DNA of 64,000 nucleotides from a phage: the sequence record PX104379.1. One strand, given 5' to 3'. The position numbers and the translations under genes were made by a program. This document shows, piece after piece, positions 9,378-60,621 of this stretch; position 1 is the first letter of the stretch; each line of letters opens with the position of its first letter. The notes under the pieces were generated by a model, which was not told the DNA's origin, did not search any database, and saw only the letters and a list, made by a program, of their open reading frames with translations.

Positions 9378-9400
9378 GGGACCTTTCGGTCCCTTTTTAT
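9378..9400. terminator. Bidirectional terminator between gene 24 and rnlB
   Basis: GGGACC-TTTC-GGTCCC followed by TTTTTAT; T-rich on both strands. Confidence 0.7.
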
Positions 9401-10984: not shown

Positions 10985-12403
10985 TTATGGATAGGTATAG
11001 ATGATACCAGTTTCTAAAGCAGTTTTATGAATGATGTATCCATTACGTGATTCTTGAACATCAACTTCTGGATAGTCTTTCATCATCTTCTGGAGAGTGT
11101 AACGATGCAAGTAGTACTTACTATCTGGATCGTCAGTTTTCCAATCTTTACCTTCTTCGGTCATTTTTTGGATTTCATCCATAACCCACCAACCACACCA
11201 GATGTAAGCTGAAGTACGATGTGGAAGAGGATGAACATAAGGTAATTCACCTTCTGGCTCTGGAGCAACTTTATCAGTTACCTGAACTTGACCTTCCGCC
11301 GTAATAGTTTTGCTATCATAATCAGCAGCAGTAACAGTTGCAGTAACTTCAATAGTTTGACTTCCAATAGATGAGGTATCAACGGTATATACATTAGTTG
11401 ACCCTTCTACAGGAGAAGAGTCTTTCTTCCATGAATAAGTAATTTGCGCTTCTTCTGGAGCATCAGTGACATTAGCAGTAAATGTAGCCGAAGCATCTTG
11501 CTGAACATTAATAGAAGGAGGAGTCAATGTAACCTGTGGATTCATTGTCTTCTTATTAACCGTTAATGATACTTCATTAGAAGTAACTTCCTTTGCATCA
11601 TAATCTGCCGCGGTTACTTGGGCTACGCATTTAATTCTTTTTACTCCACTTGTAGTTGGAGTATAGTTAAATGTAGAGTTAGTTTCTCCACCAACTTGTG
11701 AATCATCTACATACCACTGATACGTAGCAGACGCTCCAACTGGTTGAGAAGCTAAGGCAGCAGTAAATTGAACTGGGGTTCCAATTACTCCAGCTGAAGG
11801 ACTATCGGGAGTTACTGCCAAAGTAGTTGTCTGTGTCTTTTTATTAACAGTCAATGACACTTCATTAGAAGTAACGCTTAGTGCATCATAATCTGTCGCG
11901 GTTACTTGAGCCACACACTTAATTCTTTTTACCCCGCTTTCGGCAGGAGTGTAATTGAACGTAGCGTTAGTTGCTTCGCCCACAGGAGAATCATCTACAT
12001 ACCATTGATAAGTAGCGTTTGCGCCCGATGGCTGCGAAGCTAAAGCGGCAGTAAATTCAATAGCTGTTCCGATTACTCCAGCGTCAGGGCTATTAGGAGT
12101 TACAGCTAAGGTAGTCGTTTGTGTCTTATTTTGAACTGTGATAGTTGTTGTCGCTTCAGCCGTTTCCGGGCCTCCTTCAGAAAGTGTATTTGTTGCAACT
12201 ACTTTAATAGTCTTTTGACCGGCAGGTCCTTTTAGTACATAACTAAAAGTTGCTTCAGCTCCATCTTGTGGAGCATCATCTACAGTCCAAGCATAGGTAA
12301 TAGTTCCGCCTCCAGTTTCACCACTGGGTGTAGCAGTAAACTGCTGAGTCTGATCTATAACTCCAGTAGGTGTTTTAGGAGTTATATCAACTGTAAAAGC
12401 CAT
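10985..12403 (-). CDS. hoc: Hoc, highly immunogenic outer capsid protein, four Ig-like domains plus capsid-binding C-terminus
   Basis: 472 aa; N-terminus and C-terminus (..YIWCGWWVMDEIQKMTEEGKDWK..) match T4 Hoc as recalled; internal tandem domain duplication. Confidence 0.9.
   Translation of the reverse strand: MAFTVDITPKTPTGVIDQTQQFTATPSGETGGGTITYAWTVDDAPQDGAEATFSYVLKGPAGQKTIKVVATNTLSEGGPETAEATTTITVQNKTQTTTLAVTPNSPDAGVIGTAIEFTAALASQPSGANATYQWYVDDSPVGEATNATFNYTPAESGVKRIKCVAQVTATDYDALSVTSNEVSLTVNKKTQTTTLAVTPDSPSAGVIGTPVQFTAALASQPVGASATYQWYVDDSQVGGETNSTFNYTPTTSGVKRIKCVAQVTAADYDAKEVTSNEVSLTVNKKTMNPQVTLTPPSINVQQDASATFTANVTDAPEEAQITYSWKKDSSPVEGSTNVYTVDTSSIGSQTIEVTATVTAADYDSKTITAEGQVQVTDKVAPEPEGELPYVHPLPHRTSAYIWCGWWVMDEIQKMTEEGKDWKTDDPDSKYYLHRYTLQKMMKDYPEVDVQESRNGYIIHKTALETGIIYTYP
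11549..12124 (-). repeat. Tandem duplication of a 288-bp Ig-domain coding unit inside hoc
   Basis: Two adjacent 96-aa units (TQTTTLAVTP...SLTVNKK) nearly identical at protein level; DNA units visibly similar. Confidence 0.8.
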
Positions 12404-23181: not shown

Positions 23182-23185
23182 CAAT

Positions 23186-23212
23186 GGGGACCTTTCGGTC
23201 CCCATATTTTTA
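23186..23212 (+). terminator. Terminator after gene 54
   Basis: GGGGACC-TTTC-GGTCCCC followed by ATATTTTTATTT. Confidence 0.7.
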
Positions 23213-23500
23213 TTTACGGAATGAAATAAAAGCAGCAACTGAAGCAACTAAACTGTCTTCAATATAAACCTCAATTTTTACCGGAGCTTCTGACTCAAAT
23301 TTACCTGTTACTACACCTTGGAAAATACTTTCAGTCTGTTCTGGCTTTGAAAAATTTTCAGAAGGAAAAATTCCGAACTTTTTATCTGTTCCAAAAATTT
23401 TGATAAATTCATCGTAAACTGCTTCATTAAAAGCATTATCAGCAGGAATAACGCCTTCAACTACAAGTTCTTGACCTAAAAAGCGTAAAGAAGATTTCAT
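23210..23500 (-). CDS. Hypothetical protein (position of T4 alt.-3)
   Basis: 96-aa ORF with early promoter and GAGGAA ribosome-binding site upstream. Confidence 0.55.
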   Translation of the reverse strand: MKSSLRFLGQELVVEGVIPADNAFNEAVYDEFIKIFGTDKKFGIFPSENFSKPEQTESIFQGVVTGKFESEAPVKIEVYIEDSLVASVAAFISFRK

Positions 23501-23531
23501 TTTGTGTTCCTCATGTTATGTCAGTAAGACT

Positions 23532-23561
23532 ACTATAACACAACACGAGGGACTTGTAAAC
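23532..23561 (-). promoter_or_regulatory. Early (sigma-70 type) promoter for alt.-3-position gene
   Basis: Minus strand GTTTACA, 17-nt spacer, TGnTATAGT extended -10, then GAGGAA and ATG. Confidence 0.55.
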
Positions 23562-25618
23562 TACATTTTGAACTTTTTAGACATTCCGTTGATGTTAACC
23601 AAAGAAGCCAAGATTTGAGAAACTTCGTTTTCCTCTTCTTTTGATTCTTCTACAAGGAATTGATTAAATCCAGTCATTGGACGAACTTCACCAGTTTCCA
23701 TCAAATGATCGCCATCATATACTGATTCTTCTAATTGCTCAGAAGGAGGAACGATTGTACCTTCGATTAGATACTTGTTATAAGCAGTTTCTTTCATAAA
23801 GTACGTACTTACTTTATTAATCTTCAGTAAAATTCCACGTGGTAGAATAACTTCAGCTTCTGATGGAAATCCTGATAAATGACCTGGAACGATAACTTTG
23901 ATTCGCTCAGCTCCTTTAATTACCATACCCACGCTAGTTTCAGCATCTTCATTAGCATATGTAGAATGACTACCCATATGCATCAAATCTTCTGCATCAA
24001 CAGAACCTTCTCCTTCACCAGAAAATACTGCGCCGGAATCATCTAGAGCCATATAGTTTTTACCATGCTCTCCGAAGATATTTGGTTTAAGTGATGTTGA
24101 TACGAAGTTCTTGAAATAGAACATTTTGTTTTCAATGTTATGACGCAAAGTTTTAAAGGTAACTTCTTGTCCACGATAAAGTGTAGTTCCTGGAGGAAGA
24201 ACTGAACCTTTAGCGAATGCAGAATCCAACGTCTCGATGTGCTTAATGGCACGTTCCATATATTCTTCACGGGTAGAATCTGGTTTACCCAAAAGGAACG
24301 AGTTCATTTCAACATATGAATCTGCGCAATAATCTTCAATTACATCAGATTCAGCTTGAGTTAATCCTTTTGGAGTTACTTCGGTGCTTGCGTATTCATA
24401 TGCCTGGGCAGCAGATTCATTAATCAATTTATAAATGCCATTCATTACAAATTGAATAATAGCTGTCTTTTCATCTGGCGTAGCTTTAGAACCTTTAACC
24501 AAATCATTGATAATTTTCTTAATAACATCAAAGCTATTAGAAATATTAATATCAGCAAGATCGCTTAAAATTTTATCAGTTTTATAATCAAAGAATTCTT
24601 TATTCTTTAAATATTCTTGAGAACCTTGATATGTTATATCGCTCTGCAACTTGATAGATGGATCACGTAAACGTGCATGGGCTAATGCAATATGATTTCG
24701 GAAGTTTTCTAGTTCGTAATCGCTAGATTTAAAACGAGAAGCACTTCTCATACCACCAATAGCTCCTTTGCTGAAGTTTGAACCAATCTGAATAACGCCA
24801 GAGTTCATTGGTCCTTCTGCTTTATACACCGGAACTTTAGATTCAAACTCTTGATATTTCTTAGCAGCGAAGCTATCACCCTGAAGTGAAGCATCGACAG
24901 TAGAATATTGAGCTTGTGCTGCTAATCGACGACTAATTTTAGTTTTCTGAATAACAGCTTGATCAGTGCGCTTATCATTTTCTAAAGCAATAGAAGCAGC
25001 AACAGCGACAGCTTTAGGAACAGCATTACCTGTTTTAACGTCTACATAAACATCACCAACCTTTGATTCAACTTTTGTGAATAACTCAGTTGAAATAGGA
25101 GGTACACCTGGAATGTCTTCTAAATTGGCATTTTTACGGTAAACCATAATATATGCATATTTCTTATCAAAGTCCCAGATTTCCTTTAAAAGAACATATC
25201 GACCTGCTCCTTTAGTACGTACTAAACGGTCAGCAATAACTTGCATTTGACGAGCAGCGCCATTTGTTTTACTCTTTAGTACGCGAAATAAGCATGCATC
25301 AATTTTATACTGTTTCATTGTTTGAAGAGCAGTATCAAAAACAGCATTAATGACGCCAATTGGATTTCCACCCAAGTTTTTAAGCTTAACTAACGATAAT
25401 TTCTCGTTGACACCTATCATTACGATATGCATCATTTTATCGCCTGGCTTAACGTTTTTATTCGTATCACCGCCAGAGGTGTATGTACAAAATCTAAATC
25501 CAGGAAGCACGCTTTCTTCACCGGCTTGAATAGCAAAAATTTGTGGTATTTTATGCTTAGGATTTAAGTTAACAACCGGCGCCGAAGCGCCGTCAAATAA
25601 TTCTGTAATAAGTTCCAT
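23561..25618 (-). CDS. Alt-family ADP-ribosyltransferase paralogue
   Basis: 685 aa; N-terminus MELITELFD shared with Alt; R-S-ExE type motifs YRGQ, NFVSTSL, EAEVILPRG. Confidence 0.85.
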   Translation of the reverse strand: MELITELFDGASAPVVNLNPKHKIPQIFAIQAGEESVLPGFRFCTYTSGGDTNKNVKPGDKMMHIVMIGVNEKLSLVKLKNLGGNPIGVINAVFDTALQTMKQYKIDACLFRVLKSKTNGAARQMQVIADRLVRTKGAGRYVLLKEIWDFDKKYAYIMVYRKNANLEDIPGVPPISTELFTKVESKVGDVYVDVKTGNAVPKAVAVAASIALENDKRTDQAVIQKTKISRRLAAQAQYSTVDASLQGDSFAAKKYQEFESKVPVYKAEGPMNSGVIQIGSNFSKGAIGGMRSASRFKSSDYELENFRNHIALAHARLRDPSIKLQSDITYQGSQEYLKNKEFFDYKTDKILSDLADINISNSFDVIKKIINDLVKGSKATPDEKTAIIQFVMNGIYKLINESAAQAYEYASTEVTPKGLTQAESDVIEDYCADSYVEMNSFLLGKPDSTREEYMERAIKHIETLDSAFAKGSVLPPGTTLYRGQEVTFKTLRHNIENKMFYFKNFVSTSLKPNIFGEHGKNYMALDDSGAVFSGEGEGSVDAEDLMHMGSHSTYANEDAETSVGMVIKGAERIKVIVPGHLSGFPSEAEVILPRGILLKINKVSTYFMKETAYNKYLIEGTIVPPSEQLEESVYDGDHLMETGEVRPMTGFNQFLVEESKEEENEVSQILASLVNINGMSKKFKM

Positions 25619-25621
25619 GAT

Positions 25622-27715
25622 TTATCCTTGAACGAACTTGTAAGGCATGTTTGTAATATCTATGCAAGACGCAATAATTCCAAGAGATGATTCTACTTTC
25701 TGTTTAACGTTTGATGAAACAAATGATGCAAAGTCAACTCTGTCTTCTATTTCAATATCACCTGTCATTGCAACCAATTCACCAGTTTCCATTAAATGGT
25801 CTCCGTCATAGATTACCGATTCGGTGAGTTCTTCGGTGGTCATAACTTCAGCTTGAATGAGTTTTGTATTATTAGACGTGGTTCCGTCATTATTAGAAGC
25901 ATCAGTTATTTTATTAACTTTGACCATCAATCCGCGCGGTAGAATAACTTCAGCTTCTGTTGCTATTCCGAGACTTCCTGGATATACAACATTAACTTTA
26001 TGAGCTCCATCAATTACCCATCCTATTTGAACTTTAACGTATTCAGGATTTTCTTTATACGCTCTTATTTCGTTTGGATTAATAGTTATTCCTTCTTCAT
26101 TTTTATCAACTGTCAATTCATTACGAGTTTCTGGTTCTAAAAGACCAATACCAGCATGTGTAATTCCAAAACGTCCAAAAATGATAGGAGTTAAAGAAGT
26201 AGATACAAAATTTCTGAAATAGAACACTTTATTTTTAACTAGTGCTTCGTATATAGGAGCAGTCATACTTTGAGCACGATAAACTGTGATGCCTTCCGGT
26301 ATGCGGTCACCATTTTCAAAAGCTGAATCTAAGTTATTTATAGCAGATTCAATTTCTTTTTCACTCATTACATCATATCGTTCTGGATTGTAACGACCTA
26401 AAAGAAGATTATTAATGTCAGTATATCCTGAACCACAATATTCTCTAATACCGCGCTTTTGTGATGGAGTATATTTAGAACCATCGCGGGCAATAGTAAT
26501 ATCAATCATTGGACCAGCACCAATTCCAGAAAAACTGTAAATCATTCGTTTGAGGAATTTAGTTTTTGCTGCGTTCCAGGAATTTTTAGTTATTTCTTCC
26601 CAGACTTCATCTGGTTGTCCTTTACGATTTTTATTATGATTAGCAAGCCATTTATCTTTATAATCTTCAAAGAATTGATTTACAGCTGCTGCGTATTTCT
26701 CTAAACATTTTATTGAAGTAGTTGGTTCATTTTTAATTGCATTAAAAATTACTTCTTTAATTTTTTCTGAAACTTCACCGACTTGACTCATTGGAAAGAA
26801 TTTATAATCATAGTGAAGTTCATCTGCCGTTCCTTCAGCAATAATTTTTGCTGCCTTTGTTTTAGAAGCTAATGAATTAATTCCAATTTTCATTTCTTCT
26901 GCTTCGGGAATTAAAGGTGCAGTAGCTGGTTTATTAAAATTAGCTGCTGTAGATTCATACTTTTGGAATAATTCACTTTCAAATCTAGAAGATTCCAATG
27001 ACTGACTCTGTGCAATTGCTCTACGGGAAATTTTAACTTTAACGATTACAGCTTGGTCAGAACGTTTATCGTTTTCTTGCGCAATAGATGCTGCAATTGC
27101 CTCATTTTTAGTTACTTGAGCTCCGGTATCTTTATTAATATAAACATCGCCGACCTTCGATTCAACTTTAGTAAAGAGCTCGGTACTAATTTCAGGAACT
27201 CCTGGAATGTCTTCTAGTGATACATTTTTGCGATGTATAAGAATATATGCATACTTTTTATCGTAATCCCAGAGTTCCTTAAGAAGGACGTATCTGCCAC
27301 CTGAACGACTACGGATAAGTCTATCAGCAATAACTTGAATTTGTCGAGCTTGGCCAGCAGTTTTAGACTTAAGAATACGAAGCATACAAGCATCAATTTT
27401 ATATTGACGCATTGTTTGCATTGCAACAGTAAAAACTGAATTGATATAATTAATTGGGCTTGGACCAAGACCTTTTAATTTAGCAATTGAACCTTTAGCA
27501 GTTAATGTAAAAGGAACAATATGCATCATTTTGTCGCCCATTTTTAAATCGCGATTAGTATCACCTCCAGATGTATAGGTACATAAACGAAAGCCTGGTT
27601 GTTCAATTGCATCATCAACATGAACTGAAAAAATTTGTGGTATTTTCTTCTTTGGATTTAAGTTTGTAATCGGAAGAGTAGTATCTTCGTCAAATAATTC
27701 TGTAATGAGTTCCAT
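25622..27715 (-). CDS. alt: Alt ADP-ribosyltransferase (head-packaged, injected)
   Basis: N-terminus MELITELFDEDTTLPITNL matches T4 Alt as recalled; motifs YRAQ, NFVSTSL, EAEVILPRG; late promoter upstream; exact start codon +/-1 nt uncertain. Confidence 0.9.
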   Translation of the reverse strand: MELITELFDEDTTLPITNLNPKKKIPQIFSVHVDDAIEQPGFRLCTYTSGGDTNRDLKMGDKMMHIVPFTLTAKGSIAKLKGLGPSPINYINSVFTVAMQTMRQYKIDACMLRILKSKTAGQARQIQVIADRLIRSRSGGRYVLLKELWDYDKKYAYILIHRKNVSLEDIPGVPEISTELFTKVESKVGDVYINKDTGAQVTKNEAIAASIAQENDKRSDQAVIVKVKISRRAIAQSQSLESSRFESELFQKYESTAANFNKPATAPLIPEAEEMKIGINSLASKTKAAKIIAEGTADELHYDYKFFPMSQVGEVSEKIKEVIFNAIKNEPTTSIKCLEKYAAAVNQFFEDYKDKWLANHNKNRKGQPDEVWEEITKNSWNAAKTKFLKRMIYSFSGIGAGPMIDITIARDGSKYTPSQKRGIREYCGSGYTDINNLLLGRYNPERYDVMSEKEIESAINNLDSAFENGDRIPEGITVYRAQSMTAPIYEALVKNKVFYFRNFVSTSLTPIIFGRFGITHAGIGLLEPETRNELTVDKNEEGITINPNEIRAYKENPEYVKVQIGWVIDGAHKVNVVYPGSLGIATEAEVILPRGLMVKVNKITDASNNDGTTSNNTKLIQAEVMTTEELTESVIYDGDHLMETGELVAMTGDIEIEDRVDFASFVSSNVKQKVESSLGIIASCIDITNMPYKFVQG

Positions 27716-27737
27716 CATATCCTCTCTAGTGTTTATT

Positions 27738-27745
27738 CTATTTAT
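27738..27745 (-). promoter_or_regulatory. T4-type late promoter upstream of alt
   Basis: TATAAATA on minus strand about 25 bp before alt ATG, followed by GAGAGGA. Confidence 0.6.
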
Positions 27746-27750
27746 AAAAT

Positions 27751-37957: not shown

Positions 37958-38307
37958 TTAGAAAGGTCCTGGATGTCTTCTGCGAACTTGTTGAAGGAGT
38001 TGTTGATTTGTTTTTCAACCAATCCTGGCTTATGAGCCACCACATCCGCCTTCTTTGCGTCTTTGCGCAGTTTTTCATTTTCACGCTCAATAGCAGCAAT
38101 CGCCTCACGATTTTTAGTATTCATCGCATCAATATAATTATACTGAATTCGCAAATTATTTAATGCTAAGGCGTTTTCATTGGCCGTTTTTGTAATTTCT
38201 ACAACAGACGTTTCTAATCTTTCAATTTTATTTTTTAAAATTAAAGAAGTTCCGCCCAATGCAATTACAATTAATAACAAGCCTGCTGTCGTATTACTTA
38301 ATTGCAT
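37954..38307 (-). CDS. pseT.3: Inner-membrane spanin subunit
   Basis: N-terminal transmembrane helix GLLLIVIALGGTSLIL followed by coiled-coil-like periplasmic domain. Confidence 0.65.
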   Translation of the reverse strand: MQLSNTTAGLLLIVIALGGTSLILKNKIERLETSVVEITKTANENALALNNLRIQYNYIDAMNTKNREAIAAIERENEKLRKDAKKADVVAHKPGLVEKQINNSFNKFAEDIQDLSK

Positions 38308-38804
38308 AAAGTTTTAATAACCTCTATAATATCGTCTTGAGAAAGACCGTTAATTAAAATATGATGTTCCGCCGGAGATTTAGAAATTTTAAAGCATGCC
38401 GCAACATCTTCTGCCATATCCGATGCGCTACGATTTGGATTACTAATTCCAAGACGATGTTTTCCCGTTAAAGGATTAACGATAATATAGCATTTACAGC
38501 TATTGATATGAACATTAGGTTGAGTCTGATTAATGAACACTTCACAATCATACTTAGCGAGTTGATTTTCTAAAAAGACTTTCATCTCTTCAACCGCATC
38601 AGGAAGCATATCACGGGCTTGCTCAAGACGACGATTTCGATATTCTTTAATGGTCGTTTTCCGCTTGACTTGCTTAGCTAAATCTTTCTTAAGATCGGTG
38701 ATATATCCAACTCGACGATTTCCTTTGAATACAGAAATCCCATCTGTAGTATCACCGTATGCTTCAACGACCATTTCAGTAGTAATAAGCTGCAAATCCA
38801 TCAT
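38298..38804 (-). CDS. alc: Alc, host transcription elongation inhibitor
   Basis: 168-aa ORF between rnlA and spanins with early promoter upstream; size and position match T4 alc. Confidence 0.8.
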   Translation of the reverse strand: MMDLQLITTEMVVEAYGDTTDGISVFKGNRRVGYITDLKKDLAKQVKRKTTIKEYRNRRLEQARDMLPDAVEEMKVFLENQLAKYDCEVFINQTQPNVHINSCKCYIIVNPLTGKHRLGISNPNRSASDMAEDVAACFKISKSPAEHHILINGLSQDDIIEVIKTLCN

Positions 38805-38832
38805 AAAGTCCTCATGTTATGTCAGTAAGATT

Positions 38833-38862
38833 ACTATAACACAACACGAGGGACTTGTAAAC
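38833..38862 (-). promoter_or_regulatory. Early (sigma-70 type) promoter for alc
   Basis: Near-identical copy of the 23532-23561 promoter: GTTTACA, 17-nt spacer, TATAGT, then GAGGA and ATG. Confidence 0.55.
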
Positions 38863-38865
38863 AGC

Positions 38866-40453
<1,588 letters not shown>

Positions 40454-51618: not shown

Positions 51619-54600
51619 ATGGCCGAGATTAAAAGAAAGTTCAGAGCAGAAGACGGTCTGGACGCAGGTGGTGATAAAATAATCAACGTAGCTTTAGCTG
51701 ATCGTACCGTAGGAACTGACGGTGTTAACGTTGATTACTTAATTCAAGAAAACACAGTTCAACAATACGATCCAACTCGTGGATATTTAAAAGATTTTGT
51801 AATCATTTATGATAACCGCTTTTGGGCTGCTATAAATGATATTCCAAAACCGGCAGGAGCTTTTAATAGCGGACGCTGGAGAGCATTACGTACCGATGCT
51901 AACTGGATTACGGTTTCATCTGGTTCATATCAATTAAAATCTGGTGAAGCTATTTCAGTTAACACCGCAGCTGGTAATGATATTACATTTACTTTACCAT
52001 CTACCCCAATTGATGGTGATACTATCGTTCTCCAAGATATTGGAGGAAAACCTGGAGTTAACCAAGTTTTAATTGTAGCTCCGGTGCAAAGTATTGTAAA
52101 CTTCAGAGGTCAACAAGTACGTTCAGTACTAATGACTCATCCAAAGTCACAGCTAGTTTTAATTTTTAGTAATCGTCTGTGGCAAATGTATGTTGCTGAT
52201 TATAGCAGAGAAGCTGTAGTTGTAACACCAGCGAATACTTATCAAGCACAATCAAACGATTTTATCGTACGTAGATTTACTTCTGCTGCACCAATTAATG
52301 TTAAACTTCCAAGATTTGCTAATCATGGCGATATTATTAATTTCGTTGATTTAGATAAACTGAATCCACTTTATCATACAATTGTTACTACATACGATGA
52401 AACGACTTCAGTGCAAGAAGTTGGAACTCATTCCATTGAAGGCCGTACATCGATTGACGGTTTCTTGATGTTTGATGATAATGAGAAATTGTGGAGATTG
52501 TTTGACGGGGATAGTAAAGCACGTTTACGCATTATAACGACTAATTCTAATATTCGTCCAAACGAAGAAGTTATGGTATTTGGTGCGAATAACGGAACAA
52601 CCCAAACAATTGAGCTTCAGCTTCCTACTAATATCTCCGTTGGTGATACTGTTAAAATTTCCATGAATTACATGAGAAAAGGACAAACAGTTAAAATCAA
52701 AGCTGCCGGTGAAGATAAAATTGCTTCTTCAGTTCAATTGCTGCAATTCCCAAAACGTTCAGAATATCCACCTGAAACTAAATGGGTAACTGTTCAAGAA
52801 TTAGTTTTTAACGGTGAAACTAATTATGTTCCAGTTTTACAGCTTGCTTATATAGAAGATTCTGATGGAAAATACTGGGTTGTACAGCAAAACGTTCCAA
52901 CTGTAGAAAGAGTAGATTCTTTAAATGATTCTACTAGAGCAAGATTAGGCGTAATTGCTTTAGCTACACAGGCTCAAGCTAACGTCGATTTAGAAAATTC
53001 TCCACAAAAAGAATTAGCAATTACTCCAGAAACATTAGCTAACCGTACTGCTACTGAAACTCGCAGAGGTATTGCAAGAATAGCAACTACTGCTCAAGTG
53101 AATCAGAACACTACATTCTCTTTTGCTGATGATATTATCATCACTCCTAAAAAGCTGAATGAAAGAACTGCTACAGAAACTCGCAGAGGTGTTGCTGAAA
53201 TTGCTACGCAGCAAGAAACTAATGCAGGAACCGATGATACTACAATCATTACTCCTAAAAAGCTTCAAGCTCGTCAAGGTTCTGAATCATTATCTGGTAT
53301 TGTAACTTTTGTATCTACTGCAGGTGCTACTCCAGCTTCTAGCCGTGAATTAAATGGTACGAATGTTTATAATAAAAACACTAATAACTTAGTTGTTTCA
53401 CCCAAAGCTTTGGATCAGTATAAAGCTACTCCAACGCAACAAGGTGCAGTAATTTTAGCAGTTGAAAGTGAAGTAATTGCTGGACAGAGTCAAGAAGGAT
53501 GGGCAAATGCTGTTGTAACGCCAGAAACGTTACACAAAAAGACATCAACTGATGGAAGAATTGGTTTAATTGAAATTGCTACGCAAAGTGAAGTTAATAC
53601 AGGAACTGATTATACTCGTGCAGTCACTCCTAAAACTTTAAATGACCGTAGAGCAACTGAAAGTTTAAGTGGTATAGCTGAAATTGCTACGCAAGTTGAA
53701 TTCGACGCAGGCGTCGACGATACTCGTATCTCTACACCATTAAAAATTAAAACCAGATTTAATAGTACTGATCGTACTTCTGTTGTTGCTCTATCTGGAT
53801 TAGTTGAATCAGGAACTCTCTGGGACCATTATACCCTTAATATTCTTGAAGCAAATGAGACACAACGTGGTACACTTCGTGTAGCTACACAAGTTGAAGC
53901 TGCTGCAGGAACATTAGATAATGTTTTAATAACTCCTAAAAAGCTTTTAGGTACTAAATCTACCGAAGCACAAGAAGGTGTTATTAAAGTTGCAACTCAG
54001 TCTGAAACTGTGGCTGGAACGTCAGCGAACACCGCTGTATCTCCAAAAAATTTAAAATGGATTGTGCAGAGTGAACCTACCTGGGCAGCTACTACTGCGA
54101 TAAGAGGTTTTGTTAAAACTTCATCCGGTTCAATTACATTCGTTGGTAATGATACAGTCGGTTCTACCCAAGATTTAGAACTGTATGAGAAAAATAGCTA
54201 TGCAGTATCACCATATGAATTAAACCGTGTATTAGCAAATTATTTACCGTTAAAAGCAAAAGCTGCTGATACAAATTTATTGGATGGTCTAGATTCATCT
54301 CAGTTCATTCGTAGGGATATTGCACAGACGGTTAATGGTTCACTAACCTTAACCCAACAAACGAATCTGAGTGCCCCTCTTGTATCATCTAGTACTGCTA
54401 CGTTTGGTGGATCAGTTTCGGCAAATAGTACATTAACTATTTCTAATACTGGAACGGCAACTCGTCTGATTTTTGAGAAAGGACCTCAAACTGGAACTAA
54501 CCCAGCACAGACGATGACTATCAGAGTTTGGGGAAATCAGTTTAGTGGCGGATCAGATACAACGCGTTCTACTGTATTTGAAGTTGGTGATGAAACATCT

Positions 54601-60300: not shown

Positions 60301-60621
60301 TATGACGGATATAATAGTGTAGGTGCAAACGCCAACGCTAAATTCACTGGAACCGTGAACGGTGCTACTGCAGGGTCGAATATAGCCAAAACTTCTTCAG
60401 ACGGTGCTCATACTCATACTTGGTCCGGTACTACAAGCACTACAGGTAACCATGCTCACACAGTAGGTATTGGTGCTCATACCCATACTGTAGGTATCGG
60501 TGCTCATACCCACACGGTAGCAATTGGCTCGCATGGTCATACTATCACTGTAAATAGTACAGGTAATACAGAAAACACGGTTAAAAACATTGCTTTTAAC
60601 TATATCGTTCGTTTAGCATAA
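57349..60621 (+). CDS. 37: Long tail fibre distal subunit gp37 (receptor-recognising), mosaic variant
   Basis: 1090 aa; T4-like N-terminus [23 protein letters not shown] and C-terminus ..[45 protein letters not shown] with HxH boxes. Confidence 0.92.
60112..60201 (+). repeat. 30-bp tandem repeat (about 2.3 copies) inside gene 37
   Basis: ggtactaaaactacatcaagctttgattat / ggcactaagacgacaagtagctttgactat / partial third; encodes [10 protein letters not shown] twice. Confidence 0.75.
60455..60540 (+). repeat. 27-bp His-box tandem repeats inside gene 37
   Basis: Three imperfect units encoding HTVGIGAHT / HTVGIGAHT / HTVAIGSHG. Confidence 0.7.

Follow-up and report, generated by a model that had tools for sequence, protein, structure and literature searches.

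Two nearly identical stretches of non-coding DNA lie 15 kb apart in a T4-like phage genome, and the question is what they do there and why they have stayed alike. The window, by which we mean the whole 64,000-nt stretch of sequence record PX104379.1 that was analysed, belongs to a Tequatrovirus (T4-like) genome with about 98% identity to RB27, RB32 and many others. A sequence-only reading had described a 53-bp segment present in two copies with diverged flanks and had taken it for an early promoter with its leader. The pair is real and one base longer than described. The repeat comprises 54 nt on the minus strand, 53 of them identical, and the only mismatch, G/A at position 32 of the cassette, falls within the loop of a predicted hairpin. 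On both sides of each copy the flanking sequences differ immediately. When the window was searched for further copies, allowing up to three mismatches, only these two were found, and none of 100 dinucleotide shuffles gave any match.

The similarity is also well above the level common to early promoters. Four other GTTTAC...TAnnnT sites on the minus strand (62213, 51573, 35556 and 32144) agree with each other or with the cassette at 17-29 of 54 positions, compared with 53 of 54 for the pair. At three of these sites (35556, 32144 and 51573; minus strand, the coordinate being that of the -35 G) the -10 box is enclosed by inverted repeats, GGTAGAG/CTCTACC, GGTACAGG/CCTGTACC and AGATTT/AAATCT, respectively, whose stems stop before the Shine-Dalgarno (SD) sequence; judged by their sequence, they look like ordinary promoters of the PeSL type, to which we return below. 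The cassette pair is the sole high-identity non-coding repeat of the window. The window also has coding repeats, namely a 288-nt tandem duplication with 77% identity (11546-12121), three 27-nt repeats encoding H-x-H-T-V-G-I-G-A (60451-60531) and several families of repeats, 30-68 nt long and contained in about 1 kb (53020-53945), and these are probably parts of structural or tail-fibre genes.

A blastn search of the 54-mer against 50,697 phage records gave 999 places in 500 records, all T4-like, with essentially two copies in each genome and no third copy in any. T4 itself (NC_000866) has both, mutually identical at 53 of 54 positions. Because about 500 T4-like genomes carry essentially two copies each, the pair is a fixed feature of the genus and no recent event in this genome. 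The same observation bears on the suggestion that the direct repeats could mediate deletion of the intervening DNA. The 15 kb between them hold alt, 30, 31, rIII, cd, pseT and alc, and since T4 cannot do without genes 30 (DNA ligase) and 31, a phage with this deletion should not survive; a viable deletion was thus ruled out, and the retention of essentially two copies by about 500 genomes is consistent with this. Mini-circles or duplications, as seen for PeSLs, could possibly arise from the two repeats.

On the minus strand, each copy takes up the space from the stop codon of the upstream gene to the next start codon, and the downstream open reading frames are alt.-3 for copy 1 and alc for copy 2, as had been named before. 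Both copies have TTTACA, a 17-nt spacer and TATAGT, with TG at -15/-14, and scored 10/12 in a consensus scan; the promoter is followed by GAGGA and, 5-8 nt further on, by ATG. The predicted +1 is the A at cassette position 37 (23525 in copy 1, 38826 in copy 2), placed there because of the usual spacing of T4 early promoters. The T4 Pe promoters (Hinton 2010, PMC2988021) have the same GTTTAC -35, 17-nt spacer, TGn -10 and predicted +1 A and likewise lie 5' of early genes, but the typical Pe consensus stops short of the leader, whereas the cassette pair is nearly identical across 54 nt. As to an A/T-rich UP-like element, A-rich runs are present upstream of the -35 (AAAAAGTTCAAAATG; AAAAAATTTAT), but they are in coding sequence, differ between the copies and fall outside the repeat. 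In related GenBank records both sites are annotated as predicted early promoters. According to published T4 time-course omics, alc and alt.-3 have early RNA and early protein, rnlA has early RNA and late protein, the RNA of alt.-1 and alt.-2 is middle, and the Alt protein rises late. Both cassettes are therefore located at a switch of temporal class, as is expected of a working early promoter. The sequence, the annotations of related records and the T4 early RNA and protein classes all agree with the proposal of an early promoter with a leader and ribosome-binding site.

The coordinates of the features are collected in Table 1.

Table 1. Features of the two cassettes and of their surroundings (positions in the window)
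Feature	Position	Strand	Remark
Cassette copy 1 (54 nt)	23508..23561	-	between alt-paralogue stop and alt.-3 start
-35 GTTTACA, copy 1	23555..23561	-	alt-paralogue TAG (23561-23563) overlaps first G
5' arm, copy 1, CCUCGUGUUGUGUU, anti-SD	23537..23550	-	promoter spacer, upstream of predicted +1
Extended -10 TGnTATAGT, copy 1	23532..23540	-	inside predicted hairpin
Inner 4-bp stem and 4-nt loop, copy 1	23523..23534	-	AGUA-GUCU-UACU
3' arm, copy 1, GACAUAACAUGAGG	23509..23522	-	ends in SD GAGG (23509-23512)
Cassette copy 2 (54 nt)	38809..38862	-	between rnlA stop and alc start; putative ancestral copy
-35 GTTTACA, copy 2	38856..38862	-	rnlA stop TAA at 38866-38868
5' arm, copy 2	38838..38851	-	
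Extended -10 TGnTATAGT, copy 2	38833..38841	-	inside predicted hairpin
Inner stem and loop, copy 2	38824..38835	-	loop AUCU, with the sole inter-copy difference
3' arm, copy 2	38810..38823	-	ends in SD GAGG (38810-38813)
GGACUU, predicted stem extension, alc context only	38806..38811	-	pairs with AAGUCC (38851-38856)
alt.-3 (96 aa), served by copy 1	23210..23500	-	100% identical to T4T Alt.-3
alc (167/168 aa), served by copy 2	38298..38804	-	adjacent ATGs at 38804 and 38801
alt paralogue (685 aa), upstream of copy 1	23561..25618	-	likely read-through source
rnlA (gene 63), upstream of copy 2	38866..39990	-	likely read-through source
Late-promoter motif TATAAATA	27739..27746	-	upstream of first alt gene (25622-27718); motif also annotated in SA20RB
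Bidirectional intrinsic terminator	23184..23205	.	closes alt.-3 unit against gene 54; terminator scan

Transcription could also reach the cassettes from upstream. The cassette has an early internal promoter of the sigma-70 type and contains no late-promoter motif, and no late promoter was found directly upstream of rnlA. At alc, mapped middle promoters lie upstream. Ahead of the rnlA ATG (39990), at about 40018-40046 on the minus strand, a MotA-box-like TGCTTC, 15 nt, TACTAT arrangement could be a middle promoter for rnlA; it is absent from the mapped middle promoters listed by Hinton (2010, PMC2988021). The terminator scan predicted no terminator-like site between the upstream genes and the cassettes, which makes read-through into them plausible. 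The same scan did find the terminator of the alt.-3 unit, GGGGACC-TTTC-GGTCCCC, just past the alt.-3 stop codon, and a nearly identical hairpin core recurs at about 9378 (9378-9393; repeat family D15). PeSL cassettes are found preferentially in hyperplastic regions beside variable open reading frames. The alt locus is plastic, with two full-length tandem paralogues here (23561-25618, 685 aa; 25622-27718, 698 aa) and repeat families at a spacing of about 2.1 kb, whereas in T4 the second copy survives only as the remnants alt.-1 and alt.-2; the rnlA-alc junction, on the other hand, is conserved across genera. Antisense open reading frames over the cassettes (23502-23618 and 38650-38961, plus strand) were treated as mechanical ones, with nothing supporting them.

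The main structural feature of the cassette, which the sequence-only reading had missed, is a predicted hairpin between the promoter spacer and the SD. In the read-through RNA of each copy an 18-bp hairpin was predicted in which CCUC of the spacer pairs with GAGG: the 5' arm (positions 12-25) pairs with the 3' arm (40-53), and the arms are separated by a 2-nt bulge, an inner stem of 4 bp and a loop of 4 nt, the parts of the hairpin in which the -10 box and the predicted +1 are located. The predicted fold engages all of the SD GAGG in pairs and, at alc, part of the AUGAUGG region as well. The minimum free energy was -23.3 kcal/mol for alt.-3 and -30.7 kcal/mol for alc, with z of about -4.4, and none of 200 shuffles folded as well. 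A transcript starting at the internal promoter would lack the 5' arm by geometry, since the arm is in the spacer and -10 and the predicted +1 is at position 37. The leader made from the cassette's own promoter is essentially unstructured by prediction; that of alt.-3 shows some predicted pairing between the SD and the coding region, which takes only about 2 kcal/mol to open. The computed cost of opening the SD was 11.3 and 7.0 kcal/mol in the read-through RNA, compared with 2.0 and 1.7 kcal/mol in the own-start RNA. The hairpin core reached -22.0 kcal/mol in the sense strand and -12.5 kcal/mol in the antisense strand, a difference caused by three G-U pairs, and this points to a role in mRNA rather than in DNA. 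Rfam has no family for either region at E up to 1.

The conservation of this structure was examined upstream of alc, in nine GenBank phages and in 45 IMG/VR loci located by means of an Alc protein alignment. Many T4-type genera have kept the rnlA-alc junction, whose intergenic gap is about 60 nt. Tequatro-, Karam-, Jiaoda-, Dhaka- and Slopek-like phages, Winklervirus and two further lineages have a common layout, namely GTTTACA, 1-4 nt, a CCUC/CUCC arm, an enclosed -10 box and a 3' arm ending in GAGG/GGAG, while the inner stems differ between lineages (e.g. AUUUGGUUG/CAACCAAAU, AUCAG/CUGAU and UCUCGUUUUUG/CAAAAACGAGA). A plain MAFFT alignment of 13 alc upstream regions yielded no consensus structure with RNAalifold, the stems being of unequal length and out of register. 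For covariation we used an alignment anchored on the anti-SD/SD stem ends, a procedure that favours structure, so the values must be read against controls, which were far lower: 93% of the cells pair, compared with 40-61% when the partners were slid by 1-3 columns, and the covariation score was 0.709, compared with 0.231 ± 0.041 in shuffles, none of 500 reaching 0.709. Changes on both sides were seen in 8 of 11 pairs of this anchored alignment. The natural variants of Tequatrovirus run from C15-G50 through U.G to U-A, from G16.U49 to A-U and from U25.G40 to U-A, and all that were sampled retain -17 to -23 kcal/mol.

There are exceptions. Mosigvirus-like and a few other phages have only a short spacer hairpin at alc, in Acinetobacter phages the hairpin falls short of the SD, and in Aeromonas phages the SD pairs with the sequence just 3' of the -10 box. 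Gaprivervirus (L040, L041 and L066 of our sample) has no GTTTAC early promoter upstream of alc; it has a canonical terminator, AAAAAGGGGTGTACAAGCCCCTTCTTTCT, followed by a separate hairpin that pairs with the SD (GGUUCCAUCA...UGAUGAGGACC). Masking of the alc SD, as predicted by folding, is thus a recurring theme implemented in several ways, and by sequence comparison the combination of hairpin and promoter appears to be old and ancestral at alc across T4-type phages.

Many T4 early promoters have some inverted repeat around the -10 box, and one could argue that the hairpin came along incidentally when an ordinary promoter was recently duplicated, and that it has no role at the RNA level. We consider this very improbable. 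It does not fit the strong covariation over at least seven lineages and the compensatory changes within the genus, nor the z of about -4.4 and the sense-strand specificity brought about by G-U pairs, and a pair that is fixed in about 500 genomes is not recent.

The identity of the two copies extends to positions that neither the promoter nor the pairing needs, such as AAGU (7-10) and the loop. This would be understandable if both genes answered the same trans-acting factor reading the spacer or the hairpin, so that the sequence and not the structure was selected, and it is known that T4 early promoters with identical cores do not all respond alike to Alt-modified polymerase (Hinton 2010, PMC2988021). 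The loop and several stem positions are, however, polymorphic within the genus, the stem sequence varies freely across genera while the pairing is kept, and alc and alt.-3 use different cassette types in other genera. A common factor is thus an improbable explanation.

A more serious competitor is that the main role of the hairpin is to terminate or attenuate transcription, or to stabilise the 3' end of the upstream mRNA, and that its pairing with the SD is incidental. The stem-loops of PeSL cassettes have been published as terminators or attenuators, classed by their position relative to the promoter, and they cut the expression of a downstream reporter to the same extent as a strong terminator (Arbiol 2010, PMC2839356). 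In addition, the alt.-3 hairpin is annotated as a WebGeSTer terminator in one GenBank record, and the temporal class differs between the upstream and downstream genes at both sites. Against this, no T/U run follows the hairpin at either copy and the terminator scan called neither, leaving an intrinsic terminator unsupported by the scan. A terminator needs neither an SD at the end of its 3' arm nor an anti-SD beside the -35, and both are always present across lineages. Gaprivervirus, moreover, keeps a separate SD-pairing hairpin in spite of a canonical terminator upstream of alc. As the main function, termination or stabilisation therefore seems somewhat unlikely to us; it is compatible with masking of the SD, and some attenuation or 3'-end stabilisation of the upstream mRNA, as proposed for PeSL stem-loops, is possible.

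Taken together, we think it likely that a T4-type early promoter is set here within a hairpin that masks the ribosome-binding site on read-through RNA, and that the core of this cassette was copied from alc to alt.-3. The promoter, the structure, the covariation and the origin are supported by computation and comparison; the start site, the existence of read-through RNA and the block to translation are inferred. In this scheme, host polymerase would start at about position 37 right after infection and produce RNA that carries only the 3' arm, so that the ribosome-binding site would be open and alc or alt.-3 would be translated immediately. RNA arriving from upstream would carry the whole hairpin and its SD would be closed; at alc the start codon would be partly paired as well. 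At alc this RNA would be prereplicative, middle or delayed-early, and run through nrdB-denA-rnlA, and at alt.-3 it would be late and run from the late-promoter motif at 27746 through the two alt genes. The downstream gene would then neither be translated from read-through RNA nor be translationally coupled to the upstream gene. Given the known reach of a ribosome on mRNA, a terminating ribosome probably would not open the hairpin, because the 5' arm begins 11-14 nt past the upstream stop codon. The cassette would thus limit expression to the time when the early promoter fires and serve as a built-in translational insulator.

Such a cassette combines two known kinds of element, the PeSL cassettes and the site-masking hairpins of T4. 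PeSL cassettes (PMC2839356, PMC4122927) have the same order of stop codon, sigma-70-like early promoter, stem-loop over the -10, SD and ATG, and the T4/PST promoter consensus TTTACW-N17-TAYWAT is matched by the cassette. The PST stem-loops sit just upstream of the promoter, whereas the cassette hairpin encloses the -10. Copies of PeSL are substrates of recombination that reshuffle modules, and the putative events here are the replacement of the alt.-3 core and a 30-nt exchange in a Dhakavirus, both treated below. In the PeSL papers open reading frames were swapped between neighbouring cassettes; here a regulatory core was apparently swapped between conserved genes 15 kb apart. Neither Arbiol (2010, PMC2839356) nor Comeau (2014, PMC4122927) describes a pairing between spacer and SD, and neither names alc or alt.-3.

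Similarly, hairpins that sequester the ribosome-binding site have been described for T4 e, soc, 49 and I-TevI, and for mobE of Aeh1 (Uzan and Miller 2010, PMC3014915). In the e/soc/49/I-TevI type a long RNA helix buries the SD and/or the AUG, as the cassette helix is predicted to do, and a promoter that lies in the 5' arm or beside it produces a shorter RNA, which lacks this arm and is translated; by geometry, RNA from the cassette's own promoter would also lack the arm. The difference is one of timing. In the known type the internal promoter is late, and the long early or middle RNA is silenced, giving translation only late; in the cassette an early promoter takes this place, with the 5' arm in its spacer, so the predicted logic is reversed and translation would be only early. 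By analogy, the cassette would work like the e/soc/49/I-TevI class with reversed timing, without being a strict member of it. Neither alc nor alt.-3 is on the list of this review of translational control (PMC3014915), and the older literature could contain a prior mention.

How the alt.-3 copy arose was examined by comparison with outgroups. In Gapriver-, Dhaka-, Karam-, Marfa-/Slopek-like and Mosigvirus-like phages, alt.-3 has an early promoter of a different type, GTTTACAA followed by a short hairpin within the spacer (e.g. GCAC-AAGGAA-GTGC), which does not pair with the SD and reaches only -7 to -11 kcal/mol. Among the genera compared, only Tequatrovirus has an alc-type core at alt.-3. When T4-type and outgroup alt.-3 were aligned, homology was seen 3' of the SD (GAGGAACACAAAATGAAATC compared with GAGGAAAACAAAATGAAATC), and between GTTTACAAG and CATGAGGA the T4-type alt.-3 region is identical to the alc cassette. 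An alc-identical core joined to an outgroup-homologous leader indicates that the alt.-3 core was replaced by that of alc, apparently in the Tequatrovirus ancestor and by recombination or gene conversion. The junctions fall in GTTTACAAG on the left and CATGAGGA on the right, short motifs common to both cassette types. The idea of a cassette duplication or gene conversion, raised from the two copies alone, thus gains support from the outgroups, with the core from the -35 to the SD as the replaced part. The predicted fold also suggests that the cassette evolved at alc, since AAGUCC (positions 7-12) finds its partner GGACUU only in the alc context and has none at alt.-3.

A second exchange seems to have occurred independently. 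In the Dhakavirus IMGVR_UViG_2706795356 (L052 and L081) the alc leader ends in 30 nt, ACCTTACACAAACATGAGGAGAACATTATG, that match the alt.-3 leader of this phage at 30 of 30 positions; other Dhakaviruses match at 14 of 30. We take this as a partial exchange between the alc and alt.-3 loci of one Dhakavirus. The directions would be opposite, the whole core having passed from alc to alt.-3 in Tequatrovirus and the leader from alt.-3 to alc in this Dhakavirus.

Whether the two Tequatrovirus copies are still being kept alike by frequent gene conversion (concerted evolution) was assessed in 33 copies, a small sample deliberately skewed towards divergent genomes, with 10 comparable genome pairs; the close relatives came from five IMG/VR genomes and from nine stretches of one metagenome scan. 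No difference between the two sites is fixed among the 33 copies, and five variants (C15T, G16A, T27C, G32A and T33A) occur at both sites, by a rough estimate a larger overlap than is expected if mutations arose independently and at random at all positions. In one genome (L012) both copies have the otherwise alc-typical T27C together with G16A, and the putative exchange in the Dhakavirus involves these two loci. Yet the copies within a genome differ at 0-5 positions, with a mean of 2.8, practically as much as alc and alt.-3 copies from different genomes (2.98), and several genomes, T6 included, differ at 4-5 of 54 positions. Some variants are typical of one site, T27C being mostly found at alc and C11T, C12A and G29A being seen only at alt.-3, and the shared variants could be recurrent mutations at a few tolerated positions. 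Continuing frequent conversion is thus unlikely. From these sequences we favour one old replacement followed by purifying selection on the promoter and the stem, with at most occasional later exchange.

A broader proposal can be made, which we put forward only tentatively. The alc-type cassette may be a portable module for immediate-early-only expression, insulated from upstream transcription and moving by recombination at the -35 and the SD; at least two exchanges between alc and alt.-3 in opposite directions would hint at a preferred partnership or a functional link between the two genes. It has been shown that T4 evades the CmdTAC defence when mutations lengthen Alt.-3 at its C terminus, and that deletion of alt.-3 is possible (Nature 2024, PMC11618068).

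If masking by the hairpin is true, alc and alt.-3 would be the fifth and sixth T4 genes on the short list of those whose ribosome-binding site is masked in long transcripts, and the first cases with reversed timing, in which an early promoter is inside the hairpin. The 54-nt cassette would then also offer a compact part to insulate gene expression from upstream transcription in engineered phages. It would predict which transcripts yield Alc, the inhibitor of host transcription, and Alt.-3, whose extension allows escape from CmdTAC, and it would give a concrete reason for the stem-loops found around the -10 box in many T4-type early promoters. It would also mean that cassettes of the PeSL type exchange regulatory cores between conserved genes, beyond the shuffling of accessory open reading frames.
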